DNA of 64,000 nt from Candidatus Bathyarchaeota archaeon (lineage in GTDB: Archaea; Thermoproteota; Bathyarchaeia; Bathyarchaeales; Bathycorpusculaceae). The first letter of the stretch is position 1. Each line of letters begins with the position of its first letter. The notes under the pieces were generated by a model. It worked only from the letters and a program-made list of their open reading frames with translations, was not told the origin of the DNA and made no database searches. The position numbers and the translations under genes are program-made. This document shows positions 22,464 to 41,224 of this stretch, one piece after another. The stretch spans positions 1 through 64,000 of the forward strand of contig CAWGZR010000011.1 in assembly GCA_963827165.1 (NCBI GenBank), read 5' to 3'.

Positions 22464-22478
22464 TATAACGTTGTTATA
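22464..22478. promoter_or_regulatory. palindromic operator TATAAC-GTT-GTTATA
   Basis: perfect motif copy between cysS and tRNA-Cys. Confidence 0.8.
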
Positions 22479-22546
22479 CTTTGGATTAACAAAGTACTCC
22501 ACAAACCCTCATATTTCTTATGAGGAAAACAACCCTAGAACTCTAT

Positions 22547-22622
22547 GCCAGGGTAGCCGAAGGGTTCAGGCGGCAGCCTGCAGAGCTGCTTTATGTGGGT
22601 TCAACTCCCATCCCTGGCTCCA
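22547..22622 (+). tRNA. tRNA-Cys(GCA), copy 1
   Basis: acceptor GCCAGGG/CCCTGGC, anticodon loop CT-GCA-GA (G37), T73, CCA. Confidence 0.93.
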
Positions 22623-22767
22623 AGATTTCTCCGTTAGGCTTTAGGATAACAGTCCTCGTTATTATGGAGTTTTGATATACTGCGAGGGTAGTTCGACGAT
22701 AGCTTGAACTCCGAGTGAGCGACCCTGAAAAAACAGCGGCGTTAACCTCAGTTCAAAAACAGAACAA

Positions 22768-23367
22768 TTAACTTTTTCTTGAGAGCAAAAAGAAACCGAA
22801 TTCGCCAAACAGGTTTGATAGAAAACGCACTTGCCTTTTGCCTGATTTGACGAAGGAGCTTTCAACTTGGATGTTTTTGTTTTTGCAGTAGTCCAGAAAG
22901 TCGTTTAGGCTGAGGAAATGCAGGTTCGGCGTGTTGTACCATTGGTAGGGGAGCGCGGCTGTGACAGGGACGCGTCCTTTGAAGAATATGTTGGCTCTGG
23001 CTTTATAGTGTGCGAAGTTTGGGATGCCGACGATGGTTTTTTTGCCTACCCTCAAGGCTTCCTGCAGGGCTAAATCTGGCTTTTTAACTTGCTGAATCGT
23101 CTGATTTAGAATGACGTAGTCAAAGGAGTTGTCGGTGTATTCTGATAGTCCAGTGTCTATGTCTTGTTGAAAAACACTTAAGCCTTCGGCGACGCACCGC
23201 ATAATGGACTGTTCGCTGAGTTCGATTCCTTGGGCACGTACATTCCGCAGCCGTACAAGGAAGGATAAGAGCTCGCCGTCTCCGCAGCCCAGGTCTAGCA
23301 CGGATGCACCGTCAAAAATCCATCTGGCGAAAGCCAGATATTCGATTCTGTTAGCGGGTTGCGTCAT
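22768..23367 (-). CDS. metW: methionine biosynthesis protein MetW
   Basis: VLDLGCGDGELL, FDYVILNQT, PNFAH and LPYQWYNTPNLH motifs. Confidence 0.92.
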   Translation of the reverse strand: MTQPANRIEYLAFARWIFDGASVLDLGCGDGELLSFLVRLRNVRAQGIELSEQSIMRCVAEGLSVFQQDIDTGLSEYTDNSFDYVILNQTIQQVKKPDLALQEALRVGKKTIVGIPNFAHYKARANIFFKGRVPVTAALPYQWYNTPNLHFLSLNDFLDYCKNKNIQVESSFVKSGKRQVRFLSNLFGEFGFFLLSRKS

Positions 23368-23372
23368 CGTTA

Positions 23373-24506
23373 CTATGCTCCGCTGTTGTTACAAACTCCA
23401 TTTAAGAAGTTGCTAATTAAGGACACCTCTTGTTCCGTTTCCAGTAGGAAGGCGTCGTGACCATAAGTTGAGTTTAATTCACAGTAGCTTGCGTCTACGC
23501 CGGCCAACTTGCATGCTTTCACTATTTCCTGGGACTGGTACGCTGGGTAGAGCCAATCAGACTTAAACGCGAGAACAAGAACTTTAGCATGCAACCCCTT
23601 GAAGATGTCTCCGAGGCTGTGACCGTTTAAGATGTTGAAGTAATCTGTGGCTTTTGTTATGTAGAGATAGCTGTTCGCATCGAAGCGTTTAACGAAGTTG
23701 TCCCCTCGGTAACGAAGGTAGCCTTCAACCTCGAAATCTGCGCCGAACTTGAACGCAGCCTTCTCGGATTTGAATTTCCGACCGAACTTCTCCGCCATCG
23801 AAGCATCACTCATGTAGGTTATATGCCCAATCATTCTTGCGATGGCTAACCCTTTAGCTGGGATGTTGTGGCCGTAGTAGTCGCCGTTTCGCCAGTTGGA
23901 ATCTGCCATGACCGCTTGTCTGCCGACCTCATTGAAAGCTATTTGCTGAGGCGTATGCTTCAGCGTCGTCGCAATCGGGATCGCTGCTCGGATTCTCTGG
24001 GGGTAAGAAACCATCCATTGCAAAACCTGCATACCGCCCATCGAGCCTCCGACAACCGCCAAAAGCTTCTCGATGCCTAAGTAGTCGATAAGGTGCCTTT
24101 GCGCATTAACCATGTCGCAAACGGTGACCGGCGGGAAGCTGATGCCGTAGGGTTTGTTCGTTTTAAGGTTGATTGAAGACGGACCTGTGGAACCCCTGCA
24201 GCCGCCCAAGATGTTGCTGCAAATGACAAAGTACTTGTCGGTGTTGATGCCTTTGCCTTCGCCGATTAGGTTGCTCCACCAGCCGTCTTCTCCCGCTGCA
24301 TGGGAATCACCCGTGAGCGCATGCAAAACAAGAATTGCGTTTGATTTTTCCGGGTTGAGTTCTCCGAATGTTTCATAGGCAAGGGTTATTGGACCAAGCG
24401 TTTCGCCTGATTCGAGAATAAGCTCCGCTGGAGGTTGTGCAAAAGTGAAGGTTTGGATTTGTGAATGTTCCAGTTTGTTTGTGCTTGTGACCTTTTTTGC
24501 CTCCAA
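23373..24506 (-). CDS. metX: homoserine O-acetyltransferase
   Basis: HALTGD, GGSMGG, RFDANSY and YGHDAFL motifs. Confidence 0.95.
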
Positions 24507-24524
24507 AAATGAGGGGAATGCAGC

Positions 24525-24539
24525 TATAACGCTGCTATA
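24525..24539. promoter_or_regulatory. operator variant TATAAC-GCT-GCTATA
   Basis: one-mismatch copy in the metY-metX gap. Confidence 0.65.
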
Positions 24540-24542
24540 GAT

Positions 24543-25844
24543 TTAAGGTTTCGCCGAAATTTTTAATGCTTGATCCAAATCTTCGATGATGTCCTCTGGG
24601 TCTTCGATGCCTACGGATAGTCTGATGTAGTCTTCTGTGACTCCTGTAGCTTCCTGTTCTGCCTTTGTTAGTTGCTGGTGGGTTGTCGATGCCGGGTGGA
24701 CGATTAGGCTTTTTGTATCTCCGATGTTCACCAAGTGTGATAAAAGCTTCACTGACTCGATGAGTTTACGTCCTGAATCTTTGCCGCCTTTGATTCCGAA
24801 TCCGACCAGGCCGCCATAGTTGCCTTGGAGGTATTTTGCCGCGATCTTGTGGTTTGGATTGTCAGGCAGGCCGGGGTAGATGACCCAGCTTACGAGCGGA
24901 TGCTGCTTAAGGAACTGTGCCACTTTTAAGGCGTTTTCAGAGTGTTTACGCTGTCTAAGGGGCAGTGTTTCTAGGCCTTGCAGGAAAAGCCATGAGTTAA
25001 ATGGACTCAACGCTGGTCCTAAGTCTCTTAAGAGTTGCACACGTATTTTGAATATGAACGCAACATTGCCCAAGCCTGGAAAGTTGCTGAAGGCGTCCCA
25101 ATATTTGAGACCATGGTAGCTAGGGTCGGGTTCTGTGAATTCGGGGAATTTGCCGTTGTTCCAGTTGAATTTGCCCCCGTCAACTACTATGCCGCCGATA
25201 CTTGTTCCGTGTCCTCCGATGTATTTCGTTGCTGATGAGGCAATTATGTCCGCTCCATAGTCAAGTGGTCTTACTAATCCTATCCCCACAGTGTTGTCGA
25301 CGACTAACGGTATTCCTGCATCATGAGCTATTTTAGCCAAAGCCTCAAAGTCGGGAACATCAAGTTTTGGGTTACCGATGGTTTCAGCATAGACGGCTCT
25401 TGTTTTGGAGGTTATTGCTTTTTTGAATTCCTCTGGCTTTTGTGAGTCAACGAAGATTACTTTTCGACCCAACTTCGCAAATGTGTAGTGAAGCAGGCTG
25501 TAGGTTCCGCCGTAAAGGTTGTTGGCTGCAACAATTTCGTCGCCGACCTGTGTTATTGCCAGCAACGAAAGTGAAATAGCTGCTTGTCCCGAGGCTACCG
25601 CTAATGCGCCTGTGCCGCCTTCAATGGCTGCTACACGTCTTTCGAAGACATCGGTTGTTGGGTTCATTAACCGGGTATAAATGTTTCCTAGTTCTTTTAG
25701 CGCGAAAAGATTCGCCGCGTGATCAGTATTTTTGAAGACATATGAAGTCGTCTGGTAGATCGGAACCGCCCTTGATCCAGTTGTTGGATCGGGTGTTTCT
25801 TGACCTGCGTGGACGGCTATTGTGTCTAATCTTTTTTTACTCAT
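24543..25844 (-). CDS. metY: O-acetylhomoserine sulfhydrylase
   Basis: [29 protein letters not shown] and [10 protein letters not shown] motifs. Confidence 0.95.
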
Positions 25845-25887
25845 TTTTTTAATGCCCCTTTGATTTTTGTTTATTGAAAAGACTTCT

Positions 25888-25902
25888 CATAACGGTGTTA
25901 TA
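25888..25902. promoter_or_regulatory. operator CATAAC-GGT-GTTATA in the metY promoter
   Basis: one-mismatch copy; minus-strand context TGCAAGAAGGCATATAAC. Confidence 0.75.
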
Positions 25903-26216
25903 TGCCTTCTTGCAAAAAATATTCCAAAAGGAATATCAAACCATCAAACCCATACATGCAATACGTTTCCCACACTCAAAAATATCGCCAAACTCAATCG
26001 CCGAATATCTATAGAGCAGCCGGAACAAGCCGAAATGACGGTATAAGCCAATCTCCAATCGCCCAACTCGGATGCAAAACCCGGTTGATTGATCCCTATA
26101 CTAACGCAAAAGAGTCCTTGAAGGTTAGAATCCAAAAAAAAACCAAGAACAAAACGGCGATCCCAGTGAATCGCTGAAGGCGCTTAGGATATTAAGTTAC
26201 TTTGCAAAAGTTTGTC

Positions 26217-26561
26217 CTAAATTAAAGTCAAGGTCAACTTGGCTTTAATGTTTGATATCCCTTTGACTTGGTTAAGCAATATTTCGTTAAGCTTTTCAAA
26301 AGATTCTGCCTCGACAAACGCAGCTATATCATACATTCCTTTCAAGGGGCAAACTTCGCTGATGCCTTCAATCTTCCTGAGGTCTGATATGACTTCGACA
26401 GAATCTGCTGGTGATGTATTTATTAGCAAAAGAGCCCTTTCAATGGCATTAATCACATGACATTTTTTCTTGTAACTTTCTGAAGGAATCTCCGAACAAA
26501 AATGGTTGTTTAATTCAAAGGTTTGTTGAGTTTTCTGCAAGTTAATCCTCCCAGAGTTCAT
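26217..26561 (-). CDS. Lrp/AsnC ligand-binding domain protein
   Basis: RALLLIN...GISEV...GMYDIAAFVEA pattern; start probably ~26457. Confidence 0.75.
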   Translation of the reverse strand: MNSGRINLQKTQQTFELNNHFCSEIPSESYKKKCHVINAIERALLLINTSPADSVEVISDLRKIEGISEVCPLKGMYDIAAFVEAESFEKLNEILLNQVKGISNIKAKLTLTLI

Positions 26562-26683
26562 CTTGCAGTTTTTTCAGCACATTATTCATATCGGTGACTT
26601 GATTTTTAGCTGGCAGGTGGTCGGGTCTTTTCAGTTTTTGTCGAGACATTTTTTCCCTCGCTTTCTTAACTTCTTGATGTTTG

Positions 26684-26847
26684 CTAGCTTTTCCTGTTTC
26701 TTTTTGGCTGCGGAACGGTCAGGGTGTCTTCCGCTTTCTTGAAGACGCAGAAAATTGCTTGGTAGATATGCGCTCCTTTTTGACCTCGATCGGGTTGATG
26801 TCTAGCCCAGCGTATACGGAAAGTAAGTCTAATTTTTTTTTAAACAC
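26684..26847 (-). pseudogene. degenerate 5' fragment of a metY paralog
   Basis: KKKLDLLSVYAG then, after a frameshift, IYQAIFCVFK; MetY reads [12 protein letters not shown]...[10 protein letters not shown]. Confidence 0.6.
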
Positions 26848-26874
26848 TTTTTTACGCTCCTTATTGGTTTTTTA

Positions 26875-27892
26875 GACCTGTGCACAATTCGTTTTTTATA
26901 GTTTTGTTAACTACTAATCTAATGAGCAGGTCTGGGCTGGAATCCTGAAATGCCATCGGTTGGTGTCTCACAGGCTCCATAACCTTTAGAGTATTGGATC
27001 AAGCCCAGTACTTGCTCACGTGCTTTAGACTTTCTTCGCCAAGAACCAAAGATTTCATTGCTTCTGCATCAAAACTTATCAAGGCAGCCATAACCATCGC
27101 CGCTTTCTTCACCAAACCCCTTGGCCTTATCCAGCATTGCTTCAAAACGTTAGCTTTAATGTGCCCGTTAAACTGCTCAACCACATAACGCCTAGTCTTC
27201 AACAGCTGGGCATGCTTGATCTTCTTGCGTTTCCCTCGTCTAGGGTTAGAAGCAATAACCGGCTCAGCATCAATGTCCTTGACGGCTCGGTAGTTTGTCT
27301 TCGAGTCGTAGCCCGCGTCAGCTAAAACGTAATCTGCCTCCAAATCTGCAATCAGCTTGGGAAGAAACGGCGAATCATAACGGTTCCCCGGCGTGACGAC
27401 TGCTCTTAGCGGCAATCCTAACTGGTTTACGGCTGCATGAAGTTTGAAGCCTCTGAATTTTCCTCTGCTTGTGTGACCCCAGCCGGCTTCCATATCGTAG
27501 AGATCCACTAGCGGTGTTGAATCAACAATTAGAAAAGTGGTTGGCGACATGAGCTGAAGCATGCTTGATATTTTTCCAAAAGTCTCTTCAAGTAGGCTGA
27601 GATAGCGTCTCCACCATCTTCCAACAGTGGTTCTATCAGGCACTTTGCACAACCCAAGGGTTCTAGCAGCGTATGAATGCTTCTTTAGATGTTCAACTAT
27701 GCGGGTGTCGTTCTCTAATCCTTTAAGTCTAGCGTATACGAGAACTCTGAGTGCTCTTAGGCGTCCGTATCCTGGATTTCCCCGTCGTTTTGGTTCTGCA
27801 GAAACTATTGCTTTGTTGACGAAAAGCCTGACAACATCACAGGCTTCCATACTAAAACATAATTGGGAAGCAACTTAAATTCTGCACACCCC
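26875..27892 (-). mobile_element. IS5-like insertion sequence
   Basis: imperfect ~15-bp TIRs (GACCTGTGCACAATT and revcomp GGGGTGTGCAGAATT), TA on both sides, single DDE transposase. Confidence 0.75.
26999..27850 (-). CDS. DDE transposase (DDE_Tnp_1; IS5/IS4-like)
   Basis: IVDSTP, GFKLH, LADAGYDS and RYVVEQFNG motifs. Confidence 0.9.
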   Translation of the reverse strand: MEACDVVRLFVNKAIVSAEPKRRGNPGYGRLRALRVLVYARLKGLENDTRIVEHLKKHSYAARTLGLCKVPDRTTVGRWWRRYLSLLEETFGKISSMLQLMSPTTFLIVDSTPLVDLYDMEAGWGHTSRGKFRGFKLHAAVNQLGLPLRAVVTPGNRYDSPFLPKLIADLEADYVLADAGYDSKTNYRAVKDIDAEPVIASNPRRGKRKKIKHAQLLKTRRYVVEQFNGHIKANVLKQCWIRPRGLVKKAAMVMAALISFDAEAMKSLVLGEESLKHVSKYWA

Positions 27893-27924: not shown

Positions 27925-27939
27925 TATAACGATGTTATA
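27925..27939. promoter_or_regulatory. operator TATAAC-GAT-GTTATA
   Basis: perfect copy in a leftward promoter context (GCAAAAACGCCTATAAC). Confidence 0.8.
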
Positions 27940-28069
27940 GGCGTTTTTGCGTCTCTTATTCCAAAGGGAATAATGGTTGAAGAAAGCAAACTGCCCCAAT
28001 TTGTGGCAAAAATTTTTGGTCGCCTCGTCTCGGTTGCATTCTTTTTGGAATATCCTGTGCAAAAAAGCA

Positions 28070-28125: not shown

Positions 28126-28605
28126 ATGCCCAAACAAGAACCGTACAATCCAGAATTAGGCCTTGAAAGAAGTCATACGTTCCTAAAGGAAACAAGAACG
28201 GCATTAACTGACCAAACGCTCCTCCATACTTCGGGGAATGAAGAAAACGCAACCCATCACACGTTCGTCATGAGTTTTTGCCCAAAATGCGAAGCATTGC
28301 TTGAGATAGCTCCTGAAAAATCGGCGGAGCTGTACTGTAGAAAATGCAAATACAGAGCTAAACTCGGGCAGAAGCGTATCCTGGAAAAGAAAATTGACGT
28401 TTCCCAAAGCATTCACAGAGAAATAGCTGTCTTGAACCTGGAAGATACAAAGTTAAGAACCTTTCCGGCTGTTCACAAAATTTGCCCTGAGTGCAATAAC
28501 GGCACAAGCGAAATCTGGACTATGGCGATCGGGTCAGAGGGAACCACAGGCATAACCTTCCTGAGATGCACGGCTTGCGGATATACCAGAAGGGAGGCGG
28601 AGTAA
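28126..28605 (+). CDS. TFS/RpoM-like double zinc-ribbon protein lacking the acidic catalytic hairpin
   Basis: MSFCPKC..CRKC and CPEC..CTACGY ribbons; hairpin AIGSEGTT instead of QTRSADE; conserved part starts at ATG 28270. Confidence 0.8.
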   Translation: MPKQEPYNPELGLERSHTFLKETRTALTDQTLLHTSGNEENATHHTFVMSFCPKCEALLEIAPEKSAELYCRKCKYRAKLGQKRILEKKIDVSQSIHREIAVLNLEDTKLRTFPAVHKICPECNNGTSEIWTMAIGSEGTTGITFLRCTACGYTRREAE

Positions 28606-29772: not shown

Positions 29773-30999
29773 CTAGACAACTTTGCTTAAAATATCCACG
29801 AAACGGTCGATCTCATCAAACGTGTTGTATAAGTAAAAGCTTGCTCGTGCCGAAGACTGCAACTTGAAGATTTCATGTAGCGGTTGCGCACAGTGAAAGC
29901 CGCTTCTTATTTCTATGCCATAGTTGTCAAGAAAAAGTGCGACATCGTGAGATGATAAGCCTTCAACGTTGAATGGAATAATTCCACTGCTCAAAGTTTT
30001 TTCACTGTGCCCATAAATAACGACGTTCTTGAGTTCACGCATTCGCTTAATTGCGTAATCAGTTAGTTGTCTCTCATGCTCCTGAACTTCCTTTAGCCCG
30101 ATTTGTTCGAGATATTTGACGGCGGCGCCTAAACCTACAATCCCCGAAATGTCAGGCGTTCCAGCTTCAAACTTTCCAGGCAAACTATTGAAAGTTATAT
30201 TGCATTGGCTTTGTTCTTTATTGAAAGAAACATCACTTATCATGCTTCCCCCGCCTTGGAAAGGCGCCATTTTCTCAAGAATCTCGGCTTTGCCATAAAG
30301 CACGCCTATTCCTGTTGGACCCAGCATTTTATGGCCTGAAAAAGCCAAAAAATCAACATCTAAATCTTTAACGTCAACGGGCAAGTGAGGAACAGACTGG
30401 GCTCCGTCGACAAGCATTAATGCGCCATAATCGTGTGCTACCTTAGCTATCTTTTTAACATCGTTAATTGCGCCTGTTACGTTTGAAACATGAGTTAAAG
30501 AAACAAGTTTAGTTTTATCTGATAATTTGCTTTCAAAGTCTTCGTAATCCAGGGAACCGTCATCGTTGACGTTTACATATTTGATTTCAAATCCCTTTAA
30601 TTGCGAAATTATGTCCCACGGTACAATGTTGCTATGGTGTTCCATTGTGGAAATTAAGATTTCATTGCCTTTTTTCAGCGTATGCAGACCCAGCGAGTAA
30701 GCTACAAGATTGATTGCTTCAGTGGTACCTCTGACAAAAACAATCTCAGCGCTATCTGCGGCGTTTATGAAGTGCGCGACTTTTTCGCGGGCTTCTTTTT
30801 GCATATCCGTTGCTTCTTGGGAAAGCATATGGAAAGCTCTGCCGATGTTGGCGTTATGGTTCTTGTAAAAATCCACTATAGCGTTAATTACTTGTATTGG
30901 TTTTTGCGAAGTTGCCGCATTGTCAAAGTATACTAAGGGGTTGTTGTTTATTTTACGTTTTAGAATTGGAAAGTCTTCTCGAATTTTATTAACATCCAA
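29773..30999 (-). CDS. sufS: cysteine desulfurase, SufS/Csd type
   Basis: YFDNAATSQKP, EHHSN, SGHKMLGPTG and RSGFHCAQ motifs. Confidence 0.93.
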   Translation of the reverse strand: MDVNKIREDFPILKRKINNNPLVYFDNAATSQKPIQVINAIVDFYKNHNANIGRAFHMLSQEATDMQKEAREKVAHFINAADSAEIVFVRGTTEAINLVAYSLGLHTLKKGNEILISTMEHHSNIVPWDIISQLKGFEIKYVNVNDDGSLDYEDFESKLSDKTKLVSLTHVSNVTGAINDVKKIAKVAHDYGALMLVDGAQSVPHLPVDVKDLDVDFLAFSGHKMLGPTGIGVLYGKAEILEKMAPFQGGGSMISDVSFNKEQSQCNITFNSLPGKFEAGTPDISGIVGLGAAVKYLEQIGLKEVQEHERQLTDYAIKRMRELKNVVIYGHSEKTLSSGIIPFNVEGLSSHDVALFLDNYGIEIRSGFHCAQPLHEIFKLQSSARASFYLYNTFDEIDRFVDILSKVV

Positions 31000-31221: not shown

Positions 31222-31360
31222 TGCTTTCTTGCAAGAAATATTCTAACACGAATATTGCTCATTGAAAAATCGATCAATCGTTTATTGTAGATGATTTCAT
31301 AAAAGCTCGGGCACAAAGTTTACTGGTGAGTGCAAAGGTTTTTTAGAGTCTCTGACAAAA

Positions 31361-31375
31361 AATAACGCTGTTATA
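31361..31375. promoter_or_regulatory. operator AATAAC-GCT-GTTATA
   Basis: one-mismatch copy 21 bp upstream of the ThiI-like gene. Confidence 0.7.
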
Positions 31376-31396: not shown

Positions 31397-32374
31397 GTGA
31401 AAGCGTTAGGCATGTTATCAGGCGGTTTAGACAGCACCTTAGCGGTAAAACTCATCCAAGAGCAGGGAATAGATGTTGAAGCCATCAACTTTGTAACACC
31501 ATTCTGCCAGTGCAGAAAAGGCGGATGCGGTGCGGCAGAAGCGGCAAAAACATTCAACATACCTCTTAAGATGGTCAACGCAGGCACAGATTACTTACGC
31601 ATAGTCAGAAACCCAAGGTTCGGCTATGGAAAAAACCTTAACCCTTGTGTGGACTGCAGAATTTTTATGTTAAGAAAGGCAAAGCACTTCGCAAATCAAA
31701 TCGGTGCAATATTCATCTTCACTGGTGAGGTGCTTGGTCAACGCCCAATGTCTCAGCACAAAGGAGCTCTTGATCTTATCGAACGAGAAGCAGGCTTGCA
31801 AGGAAAAATTGTTCGCCCATTGTCGGGGAAGCTTCTGCCGAAAACCGAAGCGGAGGCAAAAGGGTTCGTTGAAGAAAAAGCGCTCAGAAACATAAGTGGA
31901 CGTTCAAGAAAGCGGCAAATTGAAATGATCAAAGAATTTAACATTGTTAATTATCCTTGCGCGGCAGGCGGATGCCTCCTCACTGACAGACAATTTGCTA
32001 AGAGACTCAGAGACCTTTTCCAGCACAAAAAGAGAATAACCATCAAACAAGTTAATCTGCTCAAAGTGGGTCGACATTTTCGGTTTGGGAAAAACAAGAT
32101 CATTGTAGGCAGAACTGAGGCCGAAAACGGATTGTTGCTTAGAACTAAGCAAAAAACTGATTATTGCTTTGAGGTGCCCGATTGTGGAAGCCCAATTACT
32201 ATTCTGCAAGGACCGAAAACAAAAGAGTCGATAGAGAAAGCGGCAGCTTTAACGGTCTTTCACTCGGACAAAAAGAGGGGAGTAATTCAAGTAAATTTCG
32301 GAAAAGATAAGCTCAACAGGAAAATAATTATTTCAGCATCGCTTCAGACAGAAGTTGATATGCTTAGAATTTAG
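31397..32374 (+). CDS. PP-loop tRNA sulfurtransferase-like protein (ThiI-like, no THUMP domain)
   Basis: SGGLDS, NPCVDCR, TGEVLGQRPMSQ, AGGCLLT and GRHFR motifs. Confidence 0.8.
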   Translation: MKALGMLSGGLDSTLAVKLIQEQGIDVEAINFVTPFCQCRKGGCGAAEAAKTFNIPLKMVNAGTDYLRIVRNPRFGYGKNLNPCVDCRIFMLRKAKHFANQIGAIFIFTGEVLGQRPMSQHKGALDLIEREAGLQGKIVRPLSGKLLPKTEAEAKGFVEEKALRNISGRSRKRQIEMIKEFNIVNYPCAAGGCLLTDRQFAKRLRDLFQHKKRITIKQVNLLKVGRHFRFGKNKIIVGRTEAENGLLLRTKQKTDYCFEVPDCGSPITILQGPKTKESIEKAAALTVFHSDKKRGVIQVNFGKDKLNRKIIISASLQTEVDMLRI

Positions 32375-32465: not shown

Positions 32466-32822
32466 TTAAATGTAGTATTCAGGTTTGGAAGATTCAGAGA
32501 TTGGTTTTTCTTTTTTACAGAAAGTGACGCAGAGAGTACAAAAACCAGGCGTAATATCCCCTGCTGTAATCTCTTTATTGATCAGTTTTCTGGCGGTTTC
32601 ATGTGCCATTGCTTGGATTCTTGGCATAAACGCCTCAACATGGTCGATACCTTTGTAGGCGCGTTTAGAGCTAAGGTATTGGCTAACTGCGGCTTGGGAG
32701 GTCCCGAGTTTTTTGGCCGCTTCAGTTTGGGAAAGATGATAATTTTGCACGAGTTCTTTGGCCAACAATGACCTGAAGATAGGCAGAACGTATTTGCCTA
32801 TTATTTCACATTGCGGATCCAT
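32466..32822 (-). CDS. XRE-type HTH regulator with conserved cysteines
   Basis: PQCE, LSQTEAAKKLGTSQAAVSQYL and CTLC motifs. Confidence 0.8.
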   Translation of the reverse strand: MDPQCEIIGKYVLPIFRSLLAKELVQNYHLSQTEAAKKLGTSQAAVSQYLSSKRAYKGIDHVEAFMPRIQAMAHETARKLINKEITAGDITPGFCTLCVTFCKKEKPISESSKPEYYI

Positions 32823-32836: not shown

Positions 32837-32851
32837 TATAACACACTTATA
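32837..32851. promoter_or_regulatory. operator variant TATAAC-ACA-CTTATA
   Basis: one-mismatch copy immediately downstream of a TATA-like CTTATAAG for the HTH gene. Confidence 0.55.
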
Positions 32852-32869: not shown

Positions 32870-34039
32870 TCAACCAGCATTTTTCAGAGATTGTAATGCT
32901 TGCTCTAAATCCGCCTGCAAATCCTCGTAATCTTCGATTCCAACAGATAACCTGAGCAAATTATCGGAAACACCCAATCGTTCGCGCTCATCCTTGGCCA
33001 AGCTCGCATGCGTCATAACTGCTGGTTGATTGATTAGCGATTCGACGCCGCCCAAGCTTTCGGCAAGCGCAATTACCCCGAGCTGACTAAGGAAATCAGC
33101 CGTTTTCTGCTTGCCACCCTTCAACGCAAAAGTCACCATCCCGCCGAACCCTGACATCTGCTGCCTTGCCAAAGCATGTTGCGGGTGGGTTTGCAGCCCA
33201 GGATAGATTACTGCTTCAATGTTCGGGTTTGCACTAAGGTATTATGCGATTCTCTGAGCGTTTTGGCAGTGGCGCTCCATTCTCACGGCTAAAGTTTTTG
33301 TTCCCCGAAGAACTAAGAAACAATCAAACGGTGAAGGAACGCCTCCCAAGGCGTTTTGGTTGAATTTAAGCCTACCATATATACCGTCGTTGGAAACCAT
33401 AATTGCTCCGCCCACTACATCGCTGTGTCCTCCAATGTATTTGGTTGTGCTGTGCAAAACTATGTCGGCTCCTAAATCCAGTGGGTTCTGCAGAAAGGGG
33501 CTTGCGAAAGTGTTGTCAACAATAGTCAGGATGTCGTGTTCCCGCGCGAGTTTTGAAATCGCTTTAATATCGCATAACCTCAGCAATGGGTTGGTTGGCG
33601 TTTCAAGCCAAATCAGCCTTGTATTACGTTTAATTGCCTCTTCAACTTTTTCAACCCTTGAAGCATTCACATAACTAAAATCCAAACCAAAATTAGCCAA
33701 TGTCTTATCAAATAACCTGCGGGTTCCCCCGTAGAGGTCCTCAAACGCCACCACGTGATCACCTTCCTTAAGCAACGAAAGTGCCAGAGTGGTTTCCGCA
33801 GCTAAACCCGACGCGAAAGCCAATCCATACCTCGCATTTTCCAAAACCGCCAACCTTTTTTCTAATGCATGCCTTGTGGGATTGTCTGTTCGAGCGTATT
33901 CATACCCGCTGGTCGGTTTGTCTATTTCTTTTCTTGCGAATGTTGCCGCTAGATGAATTGGACTTACTACGTCGCCACATCCTCCTTCCTTAAGATTCGG
34001 CTCTTCCCCAGCGTGGATCGCTTTGGTTGAAAACTTCAA
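32870..34039 (-). pseudogene. cystathionine gamma-lyase/synthase with an in-frame TAA
   Basis: YEYARTDNPT, ETPTNP, HSTTKYIGGHSD and AESLGGVESL motifs; RIA*YLSANP at 33242-33244, same frame continues. Confidence 0.85.
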
Positions 34040-34045
34040 ACAATG

Positions 34046-35474
34046 TCACCTGCTGAGAAGATAGTTTATGACGTCTATTGTGGTTATTATGTCGATAATT
34101 TTATTGTCTTCCAAGACGGCTAACGCATTCTGATTCTTCAATAGGTTAAGAGGCGCAACTATTCTTTCCTCAATATTAACGGCGGGAAGTGGCGGTTCAA
34201 GAAAATCCTTTACTGTTTGTTTGCTTGATGAAGCCCTATCGGACAGCTTTTTCATAACGGTAATTTCTCTTATGCTGCCCACTTGAACGTCGTCTTTGAT
34301 TACCGGCAGTTGCGAGACGCCGTGCACTTTCATTAAATCTATTGCCTTGCTGATACCGTTTTCTGGATCAACATAGAGTAAACCCAACTTGTTTGATTTC
34401 GTCCTCAAAATATCCCTAATTGCTATTTTTTCCTCGCCGCCCGACAGGAAACCGTTCTCAATCATCCCAGTCATCGGAGTAAAACTTGTTAAGATAATTT
34501 CTTCCAGTGTCTGGTAAAATAACCACCATAGTCTTGCCTTCTCCCATCTTCTTTGCCACTTGTAACGCTGCGAACACGGCGGCACCTGCCGAGCCACCAG
34601 TAAACAACCCTTCTTTTTGAGCTAGTTCTCTTGCGGTTAGGAAAGAGTTTTTGTCGTTTACGGTTATGATTTCGTCAACTATCTTTAAGTTTAGTGTTGA
34701 CGGAAGGAAGTCTTCGCCGATGCCTTCCACTTTGTAGGAGTGTACGTCTGCCTTGTCTTTTGTTCCATAGAATTCATGGTGATATAGTGATCCTTCAGGA
34801 TCAACGCCGACAATGCGGATGTTTGGGTTTTTTTCTTTGAGGTATTTGGCGATACCGCTGATTGTTCCGCCTGTTCCCATTGTGGCAACTAAAACGTCAA
34901 TCTTGCCTTTGGTTTGTTTCCAGATTTCTGGACCCGTTGTTTTGTAGTGTGTTTCTGGGTTTGCTTTGTTGAAGTATTGGTTTGGCATGAAGGAGTTGGG
35001 TGTTTCTTTGGCTATTCTCTCAGCAACTTTGACGTAGTTTGCTGGATGGTCCGGGGCTACATTTGTCGGGGTGATGATGACTTTTGCGCCAAACGCTCGT
35101 AGAAGGTCGATTTTTTCTCTGCTCATTTTATCCGGCAAAGTGAATATCATTTTGTAGCCTTTAGCGATGGCGGCTATTGCCAATCCAAGACCTGTGTTGC
35201 CTGAGGTTGGCTCAACGATGGTGTATCCCGGTTGTATGATTCCTTGTGCTTCTGCGGCTTCAATCATGGAGATGCCTATGCGGTCTTTTATGCTGCCGCC
35301 TATGTTGAGAAACTCGAGTTTTGCAAGAACATCACATTCTACGCCTTGTGTGAGTTTGGTTAATTTTAACATTGGTGTATTACCTATTAATTGAAGGATG
35401 TTTTCTGAGATTCCGTCCCTTGTAGGGATAGATTTCTTGAGTTTTGTGGTTTGTCTGGTTTTTTCGGTTATCAA
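34046..35474 (-). CDS. cbs: cystathionine beta-synthase with C-terminal CBS domains (one +1 frameshift)
   Basis: [20 protein letters not shown] and VEGIG motifs; extra G at ~34467 splits FYSDDW/MIENGF; CBS pair follows. Confidence 0.85.
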
Positions 35475-35490
35475 TTTTGACCCTCTGTTG

Positions 35491-35532
35491 TATAACAATG
35501 TTATAAACAACCATTTCTATAACGGCGTTATA
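35491..35532. promoter_or_regulatory. tandem operators TATAAC-AAT-GTTATA (35491-35505) and TATAAC-GGC-GTTATA (35518-35532)
   Basis: two perfect copies in the cbs promoter. Confidence 0.85.
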
Positions 35533-35615: not shown

Positions 35616-35630
35616 TATAACATCGTTATA
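35616..35630. promoter_or_regulatory. operator TATAAC-ATC-GTTATA
   Basis: perfect copy 18 bp upstream of the HTH-CBS ATG. Confidence 0.85.
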
Positions 35631-35648
35631 ACTCAATTATTGAATAAC

Positions 35649-36203
35649 ATGGTTCCTAAATTAGACGAAATTGCCAAACGCCGCAGACAACTTGGTCTTA
35701 AACAATCAGAGCTGGCAAAGGCAGCAGGCGTAAGCCAATCACTAATTGCCAAACTGGAGGCAGGAACGATAGACTCGTCCTACACCAAAGTGAAAACAAT
35801 CTTCGATGTCCTCGAACGCTTAGAATTCAAAACCAAAGTCCAAGCAGAAAAAATCATCCAATCCGAAGTTGTCAGCATCCAAAAAAACGAACCAGTTTCT
35901 GAAGTTGTAACGATCATGAAGGAGCACGGTTACTCGCAGATACCTGTGTTTGATGGGAAACAATCTGTGGGAAGTATTTCGGAAAAGGCGATTCTTAGGC
36001 AGATTTTGGCTGGAAAAGATTTGGAGGACATATCTAAGCTGCCGACTGAGAAAATTATGGAGGAAGCTTTCCCCCAGATAAGCGAGGATGCCCCGTTGTC
36101 ATTGATTACAAGTCTCTTGCAGACCTACTCAGCGGTTTTAGTATCGAAAAAAGGCGTGGTGGTGGGCATTATTACGAAGGCGGATTTGCTGCGGATGCTT
36201 TAA
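35649..36203 (+). CDS. XRE-HTH + CBS-pair transcriptional regulator (COG3620-like)
   Basis: RRRQLGLKQSELAKAAGVSQSLIAKLEAG; CBS motifs YSQIPV and GIITKADLL. Confidence 0.9.
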   Translation: MVPKLDEIAKRRRQLGLKQSELAKAAGVSQSLIAKLEAGTIDSSYTKVKTIFDVLERLEFKTKVQAEKIIQSEVVSIQKNEPVSEVVTIMKEHGYSQIPVFDGKQSVGSISEKAILRQILAGKDLEDISKLPTEKIMEEAFPQISEDAPLSLITSLLQTYSAVLVSKKGVVVGIITKADLLRML

Positions 36204-36385
36204 GGTGGGGATTATTTTTTTAAGTATGGGGATTCTTTTAATTGGTTAGAAAAAATTGTTTTTATATGGTGGTGAGGGGTGCCGGATACTGTTAAGTTAA
36301 GTTACCCATGAATTTTTTGGTACTGAAACTAAATGTTTTATATTCTCAAAACTTAAATATCAATAACAACGTAAAACAAAGCTAA

Positions 36386-37372: not shown

Positions 37373-37383
37373 AAAACTATAAA

Positions 37384-37584
37384 TTGAATAAAGATAACAT
37401 ATATGGTAGGGTTTTTGCTATGGAAACTGAACAAGTCAAGAAAAACACTCAACTACTGATTGACCAATTTTCTAAACAAAAGGCTGAAGACCCATTGGTA
37501 AAGTATTGGATAGAACGAAAACGAGGAATCGTAACTTCACTTACTCCCAAAAAAACAGCGAAACATACAAAAAAATCCGCGTAG
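37384..37584 (+). CDS. small hypothetical protein
   Basis: directly downstream of the protease gene; likely ATG at 37420. Confidence 0.4.
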   Translation: MNKDNIYGRVFAMETEQVKKNTQLLIDQFSKQKAEDPLVKYWIERKRGIVTSLTPKKTAKHTKKSA

Positions 37585-37585
37585 T

Positions 37586-37738
37586 TTAGCTTATCTTCAC
37601 TTTCTGTTTTAATCGTTTCTCGTATTCTTCTTCTGTTATCATGCCTTTTTCGATAAGTAAGTCAACTAGGGCTGAGTGCATACTGTCTAAGAGGTCTATT
37701 TCTTCAAGCGGATTTCTTTCAACTTTTGCTTTCTTCAT
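37586..37738 (-). CDS. 50-aa helical protein (not in the ORF track)
   Basis: MKKAKVERNPLEEIDLLDSMHSALVDLLIEKGMITEEEYEKRLKQKVKIS; overlaps the RHH gene. Confidence 0.6.
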   Translation of the reverse strand: MKKAKVERNPLEEIDLLDSMHSALVDLLIEKGMITEEEYEKRLKQKVKIS

Positions 37739-37892
37739 GTTTTCCACCTTTAGCTAAGTATCCTTGTTCGCTTAACCAATTCATAATGATTTGCCTTAGA
37801 GTATCGCTATATCCTTCGCCTAACTTACCGACTACCTCTTTGTCTAAGATTTCAACGACTCCATTGGGTAAAGATACTAAGATTTTCTTCAT
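37719..37892 (-). CDS. 57-aa CopG-like RHH protein (not in the ORF track)
   Basis: MKKILVSLPNGVVEILDKEVVGKLGEGYSDTLRQIIMNWLSEQGY; ATGA-coupled to the transposase stop. Confidence 0.7.
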   Translation of the reverse strand: MKKILVSLPNGVVEILDKEVVGKLGEGYSDTLRQIIMNWLSEQGYLAKGGKHEESKS

Positions 37893-38797
37893 TTACTTAT
37901 CACCTTTAATTCCTCTTTTTCTTCTTTTGAGTTACTGAGAGCATGAACTAAAGTTGCCGCTTCGCGTTTTGTGGCTTGGTCTATCAAGCCTTTCCAATTG
38001 TTAGGAACGTTCATCCGTGCCGCTTGAGCTGGTGTTTTGCCGCCGAGACTTTGATGGGGGCGAACACAGTTATAGTGAACTGACCATCCTTCGAGCAACA
38101 GTTTTGTTGATTCATAGCTGTGTAGTCCTCTCATGCAACGAGTTCTGTCCTTTAGGGTGCAATGGAGTCTTTCAACGATGTTGTTTGTTTCTCTTGCCTT
38201 TATGCCAACGCGCTGTACTAATTCAACTCTTGTGTCCTTTCGCATGGTATAGAAAACTTTGTTGAAAGCACTCTTATAAACGTGGCTACCGTCAACAAAA
38301 ACTGCTCGTGGTCTAACCTTGCTTTGGTCAACACCCTTTTTGAAAATACTTACAGTATCCTCAAAGGTTCTTGTATTTGAAAGGTGAGAAGCAACCATAA
38401 ACCGTGTGTCTTCATCTATCATTTCCCAGAACCAAATACTCCGACCCTCACAACTCAGCATAGTTTCGTCCTCATGCCATAAACCTGAAAGTTGTGGAAC
38501 TTCTGAAATCATATATTCCTTGACTAGTTGCGAGTATTTCTTTATCCAGTTGAGGATTGTAACCTGAGAAATCTTTTCTCCAAAAACTTGCTCCAAGTTT
38601 CTTTGAGTTTTTCTTAGAGACAGCCCGTCATAGTAGAAGTTTAGGGCTGCAACAACTATGTTTTTCTCGTTTCTCATTCTTGAGAACTTGCCGTTAGGTA
38701 CGAAAATATGACCGCAATCTTTACACTTGTAAGTTTGCTTGTTGTGGCGTATCCCTTTTTTTGTAATGTTTTCGCCGTTGCAATATTTGCAGTTCAT
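37889..38797 (-). CDS. IS6-like DDE transposase with N-terminal zinc ribbon
   Basis: CKYC..CKDC, WHEDET, VFVDG, NNIVERLH and RPHQSL motifs. Confidence 0.9.
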   Translation of the reverse strand: MNCKYCNGENITKKGIRHNKQTYKCKDCGHIFVPNGKFSRMRNEKNIVVAALNFYYDGLSLRKTQRNLEQVFGEKISQVTILNWIKKYSQLVKEYMISEVPQLSGLWHEDETMLSCEGRSIWFWEMIDEDTRFMVASHLSNTRTFEDTVSIFKKGVDQSKVRPRAVFVDGSHVYKSAFNKVFYTMRKDTRVELVQRVGIKARETNNIVERLHCTLKDRTRCMRGLHSYESTKLLLEGWSVHYNCVRPHQSLGGKTPAQAARMNVPNNWKGLIDQATKREAATLVHALSNSKEEKEELKVISK

Positions 38798-38814
38798 TTA
38801 TGTCACGCTCTTGC

Positions 38815-38834
38815 AGGTATCTTATAAGATACCT
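38815..38834. promoter_or_regulatory. perfect 20-bp palindrome AGGTATCTTATAAGATACCT
   Basis: located 17 bp upstream of the transposase start. Confidence 0.65.
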
Positions 38835-38907
38835 TACTATTTATGGCTTGTGGTATGCCTGTGGGATACCCAAGACATAAATAGCGCTTAAGTATTAAAT
38901 AGAACCC

Positions 38908-39483
38908 ATGAAGATGTTATACATGTATGTTATACATACATGTTGGGCATCTCCAAGGAGTCGCAGTATCCTGACTAAAATAAACGTACCAACAACAATA
39001 CTATCGAGTGAAGAAGTACAAGCACTCAAGCCTAACGAGCGAGAAGGCTATGTGAGAAATCTGATTAAAAGTATACTACGATTAAACGAAAACGGCATTA
39101 TGGTTTCAGAAATAGTAGAAGCAACGGCTCTTAACAGAATAACCGTAACCAAACACTTAGAGCATTTGGTGGCTATAAGAGAATCTTACAAAAAGGACAG
39201 GGGAATTGGCGCTGTTTATTATCTGAATGGCAAAATGGTTCATCCTACAGACCGCGCAAGCATAAACTTGGGAAATAAGATATATGAATTTGTTAAGCTC
39301 GAAAATCCGGACGGAGAATATATCTTCGTTCAAGAAAAAGAACAGGACAACCTAAAAGTTACCACTGTAAGAGGTGGAATTATGCTTCGTTCTTGTGATT
39401 TACCCCTATTCATAGAAGGGTTAAACAAATTCATGGTTATTGCAGAACTAAACAAAGGAGACGAAAATAGACATGAGCACTAG
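38908..39483 (+). CDS. winged-helix protein with a small C-terminal domain
   Basis: GIMVSEIVEATALNRITVTKHLEHL HTH; overlaps the next gene; start uncertain. Confidence 0.7.
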   Translation: MKMLYMYVIHTCWASPRSRSILTKINVPTTILSSEEVQALKPNEREGYVRNLIKSILRLNENGIMVSEIVEATALNRITVTKHLEHLVAIRESYKKDRGIGAVYYLNGKMVHPTDRASINLGNKIYEFVKLENPDGEYIFVQEKEQDNLKVTTVRGGIMLRSCDLPLFIEGLNKFMVIAELNKGDENRHEH

Positions 39484-40825
39484 ATTACATGTAAAACATT
39501 ATTCAAATAGACGATGTCGTTTTTCAGAATCAGTTGATTTCCAAGTAAATGGTAAATCCATTCCAACACCAACATTTGCGCCGAGACTGAAAAATGATAA
39601 TGAACTAAATGTTTACCTAGACATGAAATCTAACAATGACACTAAACAGCTTTCCGCATTCATCATAAGATTAATTGATGTAAAAAGGACAATACAGTAC
39701 CGATTGAAAAAAACAGAACAAACAAATCTCTTTGGTCAACCACTGGATGTCCCTTTTGCAGATAGCCTAAAACGAGATATTATTCTAATCGACCCCGCAT
39801 TAGAATATCTTTATTATCACACAATGCTTGACCGATTAAAAACATCTCCCAACATGCCAAGTCTCGTTTGTAAACACGCAGCAAAAATTGCTGAAGGCAT
39901 TGACGAGATTCGAAAGGAGAGAGAAAGGCTAAAGGGTACTTCCGAAAAGCCAGCGCAAACTATAGAAGAATACAGAGATAGTCAACATACTAACTTCTGG
40001 ACTTGCATTTACAAGGATGCAAACAAACGCATCAAATTGATTAGGGATACATATACGGCAGAAATGATGTGTAGAGCAGACATCCTTATTCCGCCAGTTC
40101 CCCTTATTACTTGCCCAAATTTGTTGACCGTTGCAATTGATATGAACGAAAAGTTTAGAGCACTTGTTGGTGATAAAGGAGAATGCGCTGATTACTTTGT
40201 TCTAAAGCGACAGATGTTAAAGAACGAAAGTGTTATGGATAAAATTAAAAACTATGTTTCAAATAGCGAGAGTCACCTCACCATCTTTAAGATAAAGGAT
40301 TCTGATTTAACGAACGCTGATTATGCCTTAGAGCGGAGTTCTTTTGGAAAACTACTAGAGGAACTATTCCTTGTCTCCCAACACATCGAAAACAAATCTT
40401 TTGCATTGTTTGAAGCGGGGTATCAAGCATTTCCAGCAGCTCTATGTTCGTTTGCAATAGTATCGACCGCATTTAACTTAGACAGGGATGACTGGCGTGC
40501 AGTTAAAGGGCAAACAATTAGCGAATATGCTAATTGGTATGACCCAAGCTCGATGACTATGCGCAATAGAGATGTACTAATTACTGAGACAGAAAATAAT
40601 AGCGGTATAGTACCTTGTTATTGTCCTGAGTGCACCTCTGGAAAATCACTAGTAAAAGAGAACCCGATAGAATACAATAGACGAGTAAAGAAACACTTCT
40701 TGTTTACAAGGGAAAATGAGATGCATGAAATAGTCGATGCAATCAGTAGACAAAACGTTTCGATGGCTTTTGAAAAACTTGAAAGGTCAGACCTGCGAAT
40801 ACTTTCTAAATTAGTGCCGAGATAG
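39473..40825 (+). CDS. putative TGT-like TIM-barrel protein with a CxCxxC..H zinc site
   Basis: N-terminal IPTPTFAP (cf. TGT TPxFMP); C-terminal PCYCPEC...KKHF; no DSGG motif. Confidence 0.55.
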   Translation: MSTRLHVKHYSNRRCRFSESVDFQVNGKSIPTPTFAPRLKNDNELNVYLDMKSNNDTKQLSAFIIRLIDVKRTIQYRLKKTEQTNLFGQPLDVPFADSLKRDIILIDPALEYLYYHTMLDRLKTSPNMPSLVCKHAAKIAEGIDEIRKERERLKGTSEKPAQTIEEYRDSQHTNFWTCIYKDANKRIKLIRDTYTAEMMCRADILIPPVPLITCPNLLTVAIDMNEKFRALVGDKGECADYFVLKRQMLKNESVMDKIKNYVSNSESHLTIFKIKDSDLTNADYALERSSFGKLLEELFLVSQHIENKSFALFEAGYQAFPAALCSFAIVSTAFNLDRDDWRAVKGQTISEYANWYDPSSMTMRNRDVLITETENNSGIVPCYCPECTSGKSLVKENPIEYNRRVKKHFLFTRENEMHEIVDAISRQNVSMAFEKLERSDLRILSKLVPR

Positions 40826-40843
40826 TCAGACATCAAAAGATGT

Positions 40844-40922
40844 GCATGGATAGCTTAGTTCGGACAGTAGCACCCGCCCACTAAGCGGACAGTCGTGGGT
40901 TCAAATCCCACCCCATGCACCA
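40844..40922 (+). ncRNA. tRNA-like RNA (Arg-type body, loop CC-ACT-AA)
   Basis: acceptor GCATGGA/CCCATGC, A73 and CCA, D loop GGA, T arm GTGGG-TTCAAAT-CCCAC, short variable loop. Confidence 0.75.
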
Positions 40923-40969
40923 CCCTATCTCTAATAGGGTCATTTCTCTTAAAAGGTTTGTGAAGCAAC

Positions 40970-41089
40970 TTAAGGTAGCTTGCCTAAAATCCTGTCGAGC
41001 TTCTCATCCATCTCTCTTAGTTTTCGCTCCATTTTGGTTATTTTACTTTCTATATCCTTTACTTTGTTTAAAGTAGCATATTCAGTCAT
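40970..41089 (-). CDS. 39-aa coiled-coil peptide
   Basis: MTEYATLNKVKDIESKITKMERKLREMDEKLDRILGKLP; inside the transposon. Confidence 0.4.
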   Translation of the reverse strand: MTEYATLNKVKDIESKITKMERKLREMDEKLDRILGKLP

Positions 41090-41209
41090 TTTTCTTCCCA
41101 AGCGTTAGTTTATCTGAAAAAATAACAAAAGGTTTGCGGAAGAATTAGTTGGGTAACTTAACTTAACAGTATCGGGGTGCCGTAAAGGCTTTAAGCAACC
41201 TCTTAAACT

Positions 41210-41224
41210 TATAACAGTGTTATA
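41210..41224. promoter_or_regulatory. operator TATAAC-AGT-GTTATA
   Basis: perfect copy between a TATA-like CTTTAAG and the cysK ATG. Confidence 0.85.

Follow-up and report, generated by a model that had tools for sequence, protein, structure and literature searches.

Thermococcales respond to sulfur through SurR, a winged-helix (ArsR-like) protein that governs the genes of elemental-sulfur respiration and of hydrogenases. In bacteria, CymR and IscR of the Rrf2 family are small dimeric helix-turn-helix (HTH) repressors of cysK-type genes and of Fe-S and cysteine-desulfurase genes, and autoregulation is common among them. The three conserved cysteines of IscR are cluster ligands. The subject here is a cluster of sulfur amino-acid genes in a 64,000-nt stretch of DNA from a Candidatus Bathyarchaeota archaeon (contig CAWGZR010000011.1; the whole stretch is called the window), in which two palindromes, P1 and P2, recur between genes. 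Comparison with related genomes makes it probable that two XRE-type regulators encoded within the cluster read one palindrome each: a small HTH_3 protein (the small HTH) would bind P1, an HTH_3 protein with a pair of CBS domains (HTH-CBS) would bind P2, and the two would form the core of a sulfur regulon.

The proposed system shares with SurR the archaeal setting, a relation to sulfur status, a C-x-x-C that is thought to be a switch, and a palindrome with a 3-bp spacer whose position relative to the B recognition element (BRE) and TATA box decides the effect. Unlike SurR, the regulators here are of the HTH_3/XRE type, the P1 half-sites stand in the order opposite to the SurR order quoted in the original prediction, and the targets are genes of cysteine and methionine synthesis and of sulfur transfer. 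No SurR-type winged helix was recognized; the matches are of HTH_3 type only, and the AlphaFold model is all-helical without a wing. The small HTH would share with CymR and IscR the small HTH repressor type, cysK-type and desulfurase targets, three cysteines and autoregulation, but its domain order and lineage differ, cluster ligation is known for the IscR cysteines only, and neither regulator matched an Rrf2 domain in Pfam (E <= 0.001) or NCBIfam (E <= 0.01). The XRE/Cro-type proteins (434 repressor, Cro, HipB, SinR, and the C-proteins of restriction systems) resemble it in the HTH core, short palindromic operators, dimers, and autoregulation; they have neither an N-terminal Cys helix nor a C-terminal C-x-x-C helix, and they do not regulate sulfur metabolism.

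Other comparisons concern the regulon or the sensor. MetJ, SahR, and McbR (PMC4239095, PMC3228920) control metY/metX-type regulons that were delineated by comparative genomics and have palindromic operators, and their ligand logic of the S-adenosylmethionine (SAM) or S-adenosylhomocysteine type resembles what is proposed for HTH-CBS. They belong to the ribbon-helix-helix, ArsR, and TetR families, and the accessible text of these reports describes neither a CBS sensor nor a second regulator at the same promoter. A CBS-pair sensor coupled to DNA binding in metabolite-responsive repression is known from BCARR (PMC3795697), a protein of the bacterium Lactobacillus helveticus that senses branched-chain amino acids. 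HhpR (NF053603), compared by name and profile score, is a CBS-domain regulator whose cut-off of 520 bits lies far above the 20.5 bits scored by HTH-CBS. Within the accessible parts of the full-text literature, a scope that excludes subscription journals, nothing was found on P1 or P2, on either protein family, or on transcriptional control of cysteine and methionine genes in Archaea. A regulon built on transcription factors and operators is a known kind of system; what appears to be undescribed is this pair of regulators, their motifs, the metY promoter with two inputs, and the lineage.

P1 is a 15-bp palindrome, TATAAC-N3-GTTATA, scanned for as TATAACNNNGTTATA. The original prediction proposed it as the operator of a sulfur amino-acid regulon, and its counts were reproduced. 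Seven perfect copies start at 22464, 27925, 28070, 35491, 35518, 35616, and 41210, whereas 100 dinucleotide-preserving shuffles of the window held a mean of 0.00 and a maximum of 0. Five copies with one mismatch (24525, 25888, 31207, 31361, and 32837) bring the total at up to one mismatch to 12 (shuffles: mean 0.08, maximum 2). At this stringency no site lies beyond 22-42 kb of the window, and all 12 fall outside likely coding regions once three over-extended starts of open reading frames (ORFs) are corrected. The genome scanned comprises 3.13 Mb in 14 contigs, the window being C11:1-64000. It holds eight perfect copies, seven of them in the 19-kb cluster, and 11 one-mismatch copies, five of them in the cluster; the motif is not equally common before unrelated genes. 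The sole perfect copy outside the cluster, C10:360631 with spacer CCC, has a DUF5658 gene on one side and, ~380 nt downstream, a SepF gene on the other; it probably occurs by chance. A weight matrix built only from 100 sites of relatives placed 12 of its 13 best genome matches in the cluster and showed that the spacer is constrained, a purine-n-pyrimidine being preferred (TATAAC-R-n-Y-GTTATA).

The second palindrome, P2, has the form ATTCC-N4-GGAAT (as a 16-mer, TATTCC-N4-GGAATA), and its core was scored in homologues as ATTC-N6-GAAT. Perfect ATTCC-N4-GGAAT occurs twice in the genome, both times in the cluster. At four sites (25888, 27925, 28070, and 31207) P2 is followed by GCAARAARGCA and then by P1 in a module of ~60 bp, with the two centres exactly 32.5 bp apart. 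The shared context GCAARAARGCA-TATAAC noted in the original prediction was confirmed at 25888, 28070, and 31207; the site at 27925 has a weaker version of it. In the metY promoter, P1 (25888..25902, minus strand, one mismatch) ends 45 nt before the metY ATG, GCAAGAAGGCA precedes its left half, and the perfect P2 lies at 25920..25935. A copy of this module with a perfect P1 (27925..27939, minus strand) and a perfect P2 (27957..27972) now faces the transposase of an insertion sequence (IS). It had been taken for a metY relic, but no metY remnant was found downstream at the protein level; only the 47-nt promoter module is alike (77% identity), and the transposase follows. The TFS-like gene is preceded by a P2 with two mismatches to the 16-mer (28037..28052) and by a perfect P1 (28070..28084, plus strand) ending 41 nt before its ATG. 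The module that precedes the sufS paralogue consists of a one-mismatch P1 (31207..31221, minus strand) and a P2 with two mismatches (31239..31254).

The remaining P1 sites differ in their setting. The perfect site at 22464..22478 stands between a broken cysS copy (minus strand) and tRNA-Cys (plus strand), and the one-mismatch site at 24525..24539 lies in the 36-nt gap from the metY stop to the metX start. Another one-mismatch site (31361..31375, plus strand) is found 21 nt before the GTG start of a ThiI-like/NFACT-R gene. The site at 32837..32851 (minus strand), whose one mismatch gives a TATAAG left half when read towards the gene, ends 14 nt before the ATG of the small HTH and is proposed to be autoregulatory. 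In the divergent gap between the split cbs gene (cystathionine beta-synthase-like) and HTH-CBS, perfect sites lie at 35491..35505 (minus strand, upstream of cbs) and 35518..35532, and a third at 35616..35630 (plus strand) is 18 nt before the likely true HTH-CBS ATG (35649). This third site overlaps by 2 nt a one-mismatch P2 (35602..35617) located 32 nt before the same ATG. The last perfect site (41210..41224, plus strand) is followed after 5 nt by the cysK ORF as called from its GTG, and homology to the intact cysK of relatives sets in 17 nt downstream of the site.

Conservation of both palindromes was surveyed in sampled relatives, whose genomes carry G-numbers and whose families carry f-numbers below, with the reversed motif as control. 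Among the first-sampled congeners, 14 of 18 had one to three perfect P1 copies each, against zero to one for the control. Perfect P1 was present in 48 of 61 genomes of the genus and in 62 of 151 genomes of the class (165 copies in total, against 27 of the reversed motif). When 19 congener loci around perfect P1 were fetched, 12 had the site directly upstream of cysK-cysE, and three of these 12 displayed the order metWXY, P1, small HTH, P1, HTH-CBS, P1, cysKE. The other seven were orphan sites: one precedes a radical-SAM gene, one an NfnAB/sulfide-dehydrogenase-like pair, and the rest adjoin pyrophosphatase, TiaS-like, ferredoxin, YhbY, and CTP-synthase-like genes, of which the CTP-synthase-like one was identified by its N-terminal sequence alone. 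One congener (G175) has 10 perfect copies, eight of them on its contigs C73 and C90, in an expanded cluster like that of the window, whereas most congeners have one to three.

All 11 of the orthologous promoters sampled first, which come from five genera, have the metY promoter module (P2, a conserved tCAAaAA stretch, then P1). A broader set from the class consisted of 15 metY orthologues at >=63% identity, G000 among them, after a truncated match in G133 had been dropped; of these, 12 had P1 (at most one mismatch, within 160 nt) and 12 had a perfect P2 core. Conservation extends to other families. In G115, which has nine perfect copies, P1 precedes metYXW, cysKE, a TusA gene and the class-V aminotransferase gene that follows it, two DsrE-family genes, a flavodiiron-like gene, and three ORFs of unknown function; its metY promoter keeps the full P2-spacer-P1 module even with HTH-CBS encoded ~350 kb from it on that contig. 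In G040 the genes downstream of P1 are cysK-like, ThiF, and DsrE_2 genes and one for a PF03601 membrane protein. The putative regulon is one of sulfur assimilation and transfer across the class. Cluster specificity, conservation, and the sulfur genes downstream support the core claim of the original prediction, that P1 is a genuine control site of cysteine and methionine genes, and they extend it to the class. What that prediction had missed is P2, the class-wide span, and the probable role of two HTH genes, listed as targets, as regulators with one palindrome each; its relic at 27925 is a promoter only.

Which regulator reads which palindrome? The gene of the small HTH (32466..32822, minus strand) encodes 118 residues. 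For 40 of its orthologues (35-51% identity, from many families), the sequence upstream was surveyed together with 130-nt in-gene controls. A P1-type site with at most two mismatches preceded 38 of the 40 genes (no mismatch in two, one in 27, two in nine), while the best match in the controls had three to seven mismatches in all 40. The distance from the end of the site to the inferred start codon was 1-23 nt in 34 of the 38 (overall range -8 to 54), and one of the two orthologues without it has incomplete upstream sequence. The site persists where the gene is unlinked from the cluster or from any sulfur gene. Furthermore, across 150 class genomes perfect P1 co-occurred with a small-HTH orthologue (E<=1e-15; two-by-two counts 43/9/18/80, odds ratio 21, Spearman 0.62), and 37 of the 38 genomes with at least two P1 copies have a small-HTH homologue.

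HTH-CBS (35649..36203, plus strand, 184 residues) shows a corresponding relation to P2. Its gene is present in 116 of 151 class genomes. A perfect P2 core preceded 24 of 30 HTH-CBS homologues, mostly 27-29 nt before the ATG, and none of 30 in-gene controls. Thus both genes have, in divergent genomes, the conserved upstream site of an autoregulated factor. The metY promoters add a further distinction: in G135 and G157 (f35), whose genomes encode an HTH-CBS orthologue, they contain a perfect P2 but no P1, and in G118 and G141 (f31), which have only a distant HTH-CBS homologue, they contain P1 but no P2. By promoter content, the metY promoters doubly dissociate the candidate pairs P1/small HTH and P2/HTH-CBS. 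The sites upstream of the small HTH, the co-occurrence, P2 before HTH-CBS, and this dissociation together are the reason for assigning P1 to the small HTH and P2 to HTH-CBS.

Several observations count against this assignment. P1 stands near both HTH genes of the window (32837 and 35616), so adjacency alone separates neither, and within the genus presence and absence did not separate the two regulators because they usually co-occur. A conserved site before a regulator gene is also expected for a conserved target of another factor. G008, a genome of 100% completeness, combines a perfect P1 at cysK and an HTH-CBS gene with no more than a small-HTH paralogue at E~1e-8. G017 has P1 at cysK and neither regulator, though its contig ends ~250 bp from the site. 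Four genomes with three to seven perfect P1 copies (G141, G146, G062, and G121) have only weak small-HTH matches (8.7e-8 to 1.3e-12), and G126 has two copies and no small-HTH match. Conversely, perfect P1 is absent from seven genomes with a good small-HTH orthologue, although four of them (G019, G027, G036, and G049) have an imperfect site before the gene. Because the E-value cut-offs were chosen post hoc, a paralogue blurs the classes, and the genomes are related, the p-values make the association look stronger than it is. As for the sign of regulation, it is deduced from presumed TATA boxes.

An unlikely alternative is that a single regulator serves the cluster, HTH-CBS binding both palindromes, or P1 alone, and sensing SAM or another adenosyl ligand, with the small HTH merely a target. 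That HTH-CBS binds P1 was indeed the initial reading, which was dropped on the evidence of the upstream sites, co-occurrence, and the metY promoters. In its favour, HTH-CBS is divergent from metY with P1 ~60 bp from its ATG in the loci of seven relatives, three of which have no small HTH within 3.5 kb; G008 keeps P1 at cysK with HTH-CBS and without a small-HTH orthologue; the window's own HTH-CBS gene has the perfect site 18 nt before its ATG; and the outer half-site bases of P1 and P2 are alike (TAT...ATA). However, 22 of 29 HTH-CBS loci of relatives (51-63% identity) have no P1 within two mismatches, and most of these 22 keep P2, while the recognition helix is nearly invariant across homologues. 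Over the 150 genomes, perfect P1 showed no association with an HTH-CBS orthologue (34/40/27/49, odds ratio 1.5, p=0.24). Two families dissociate them, HTH-CBS being present in 10 of 11 genomes of f35 and 26 of 27 of f24, against P1 in 0 of 11 and 6 of 27, and the metY promoters of G135 and G157 have P2 alone. The spacers also differ (3 versus 4 bp), as do the inner half-site bases.

It is likewise improbable that a third factor encoded elsewhere binds P1 and that both HTH genes of the cluster are its targets. A candidate would be the widespread small-HTH paralogue of ~128 residues, which is found in nearly all genomes (E~1e-8 to 1e-12; in the window's genome at C5:260818-261114) and which is the only level of match in G141, G146, G062, and G121. 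But the paralogue is also present in families without P1 (f35, f6, and most of f24) and so does not track the motif, and none of the paralogue loci examined (L058-L060) has P1 within two mismatches. The tight placement of P1 before the small-HTH start codon across the class (38 of 40) is, moreover, a classical signature of autoregulation.

It is very hard to credit that P1 is no operator at all and is instead a core-promoter variant (an unusual TATA/BRE class), a repeat or mobile module, or an RNA hairpin of the 5' leader: its TATA-like left half does follow a purine-rich BRE-like stretch at metY-type promoters, the P2+P1 module has four copies in the window, one of them beside an IS, and the P2 palindrome would fold as RNA (-7.9 kcal/mol, z -4.9), but cysK promoters hold a canonical AAAGGTTTTATA of their own and do not need P1 as a TATA box, both half-sites and the purine-n-pyrimidine spacer are conserved symmetrically, orthologous promoters of different families keep the sites and vary freely around them, the hairpins that P1 could form are weak (-1.7 to -6 kcal/mol, two of three no better than shuffles), and 20-44.5 kb of the window has no Rfam family except tRNA.

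How would the small HTH and HTH-CBS act at these sites? P1 occurs in three layouts. At cysK promoters, as the original prediction held for some sites, P1 stands just downstream of a TATA box, the canonical AAAGGTTTTATA lying 10-14 nt upstream of P1 and the ATG 12-20 nt after it, so that P1 covers the expected start site. At metY-type promoters, the left half follows AAAGG, a BRE-type sequence, and resembles the TATA box itself, which also agrees with that prediction. At small-HTH promoters, position 6 of the left half is degenerate throughout and the ATG is ~14 nt on, as expected if the mRNA were leaderless and the left half were its TATA box. These layouts lead to a prediction of repression by exclusion of TBP/TFB or polymerase, in line with the occlusion suggested in the original prediction, and the overlap of P1 with the TATA box or presumed start site suggests the same. 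In the proposed mechanism, a dimer of the small HTH would bind P1 on the TATA box (metY-type promoters and its own) or on the start site (cysK-type promoters), keep TBP/TFB or RNA polymerase off, and so repress its own gene as well; its cysteines would sense sulfur status, as a thiol/persulfide state or a metal or Fe-S cluster, and free the operator under sulfur shortage.

At metY, P2 is located upstream of the BRE, a position from which archaeal factors often activate; at the HTH-CBS gene it covers the core promoter. HTH-CBS would bind P2 and would regulate its own gene through the copy ~27-29 nt before its ATG, and its CBS pair would presumably bind an adenosyl ligand, e.g. SAM. The location of P2 ~32.5 bp upstream of P1 at metY leads to the proposal that metYXW integrates both inputs. 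The proximal half of P2 may double as the TATA box of the HTH-CBS gene. A simpler view is that P2 is just two TATA boxes set back to back, one for metY and one for the divergent regulator gene. Two observations weaken this view: G115 retains P2 at a metY promoter that has no regulator next to it, and the palindrome is kept before distant HTH-CBS genes with unrelated neighbours.

Both proteins scored above the Pfam HTH_3 cut-off (PF01381, 23 bits), the small HTH with 25.6 and HTH-CBS with 39.8 bits. HTH-CBS also matched Pfam CBS (PF00571, cut-off 24 bits) in two stretches with 62.3 bits, that is, as a CBS pair or Bateman module. In a sequence search of the PDB its CBS pair alone matched (E >= 7e-10), and no HTH+CBS protein of this architecture was found. 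Scores against the MqsA-type antitoxin family TIGR03830 (17.1 bits for the small HTH, 21.8 for HTH-CBS) fell well below its cut-off of 61.8 bits, and a search of NCBIfam and curated families returned no family for the small HTH, nor any for HTH-CBS beyond the HTH core and CBS pair. The CBS pair suggests that HTH-CBS may bind an adenosyl ligand such as SAM.

The small HTH is the more unusual of the two. C5, C95, and C98 are invariant in 40 of 40 sequences (32-47% identity) and E6 is conserved in 39 of 40; the cysteines form an N-terminal P-C-E and a C-terminal C-x-x-C, the kind of conserved ligands that an Fe-S or thiol switch has. Its AlphaFold model, of good confidence (pLDDT 82.2, pTM 0.72), has five helices in the order Cys, HTH, two long helices, C-x-x-C. 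Foldseek found no whole-fold relative of this model in the PDB (best E 0.46, TM <= 0.31), and by sequence the likeness is limited to the HTH core of XRE/Cro-type repressors (E >= 0.007). A prediction of the homodimer scored 0.02 against a mark of 0.42, which speaks neither for nor against a dimer. A natural guess from the cysteine pattern is that the protein senses thiols or persulfides or holds a metal cluster. Given the three invariant cysteines and the lack of a structural relative, the small HTH could represent a novel type of sulfur or Fe-S sensor. A bolder and more tentative proposal is that the small HTH founds a new archaeal class of sulfur sensors (Fe-S or persulfide/thiol switch) and is the master regulator of sulfur assimilation and trafficking throughout Bathyarchaeia, forming with a SAM-type-sensing HTH-CBS a two-input gate at metY that could be the first transcriptional circuit for cysteine and methionine in Archaea.

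Genes of the cluster were called from the ORF listing and from Pfam and NCBIfam profile scans. Their order begins with SepRS, SepCysS, a cysS copy in three frames, tRNA-Cys, metW, metX, metY, an ORF with an AsnC ligand domain, and an IS transposase. It continues with the TFS-like zinc-ribbon gene, a hydrolase, the SufS-family desulfurase, the ThiI-like/NFACT-R gene, the small HTH, a split Cys/Met-PLP gene, and the split cbs, and ends with HTH-CBS, a ClpP-like protease, a second IS, a frameshifted cysK, cysE, and a second tRNA-Cys. The metY-metX-metW operon (22768..25844, minus strand), the target of P1 and P2, is intact. The cysK-cysE pair (41230..43308, plus strand), a target of P1, has a frameshift in cysK near 41769-41798, outside any long homopolymer. 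SepRS and SepCysS (18127-20955, divergent) adjoin the regulon, and no P1 was found in their shared 114-nt gap; the tRNA-dependent cysteine route therefore seems to lie outside the regulon. Despite this pathway, the organism is not a methanogen, given that the closest named homologue of its HTH-CBS protein is labelled Candidatus Bathyarchaeia.

Four genes of the cluster are broken, and all of them make or use free cysteine: cysS (20990..22374, minus strand, three frames with one internal TGA), the Cys/Met-PLP gene (CGS/CGL-like, 32870-34039) and cbs (34046-35510), each split into two ORFs on the minus strand (together 32870..35510), and cysK (41230-42190). Intact beside them are SepRS, SepCysS, metWXY, sufS, the ThiI-like gene, and cysE, and likewise the long housekeeping genes ileS and aEF-2. 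The genome has no second copy of cysK, cbs, or the PLP gene, and an intact second cysS-like gene lies at C11:170889-172112. The breakage could reflect decay towards the tRNA-dependent cysteine route or an assembly error.

Three of the targets are extra paralogues. The SufS-family desulfurase (29773..30999, minus strand) lies ~210 nt downstream of the 31207 module; it and the ThiI-like/NFACT-R sulfurtransferase-like gene (31397..32374, plus strand) have site-less counterparts at C5:377589 (67% identity) and C12:41953 (56% identity), respectively, which suggests that the cluster copies are condition-specific isozymes under P1/P2 control. The TFS-like zinc-ribbon gene (28126..28605, plus strand), in this genome a target of P1 and P2 with the full module, encodes an N-terminal extension of ~48 residues and scores 44.2 bits against a TFS cut-off of 64.75. 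Two further TFS-like genes, at C5:519480 and C9:204484, have no sites, and a paralogue of a transcript-cleavage factor in a sulfur regulon is puzzling.

The cluster looks recently rearranged, with promoter modules duplicated. Two IS transposase genes lie within it (26999-27850 and 37889-38797), the first of which has a 99% identical copy at C10:333486-334334 and is directly downstream of the orphaned P2+P1 module. A weak tblastn match (E 0.15; best stretch 26040-26147, plus strand) to residues 27-63 of HTH-CBS, a segment that contains the recognition-helix motif, marks a faint remnant of such a gene at 25962-26177. Relatives carry an intact HTH-CBS gene at exactly this place, reading away from metY, and the remnant also has the register that P2 would predict. 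The functional copy has apparently been relocated to 35649, beside cbs. Two adjacent ORFs (38908-40825; 191 and 450 residues) without a Pfam match and without P1 or P2 lie between the second IS and a 79-nt tRNA-Ser (40844-40922) with the unusual anticodon ACT according to ARAGORN, which Rfam matches as tRNA with 45.8 bits. The Rfam scan of 20-44.5 kb returned three tRNAs only. Outside the window, a second aEF-2-like gene of G000 (C11:114434-116503) scores 551 and 114 bits in one frame of 712 residues, below the family cut-off; the canonical copy is at C13:49810-51978.

Bathyarchaeia are abundant uncultured archaea of sediments whose physiology is known from genomes only. With the proposed assignment of P1 to the small HTH and P2 to HTH-CBS they would gain a concrete regulatory circuit, consisting of two defined operators, two small and easily expressed proteins, and a regulon list. 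That list (cysK/cysE, metYXW, TusA, DsrE, ThiF, and cysteine desulfurases) indicates which genes would be treated as one unit of the sulfur economy. The metY promoter, with both operators at a fixed spacing of 32.5 bp, would offer a compact model of signal integration in Archaea.

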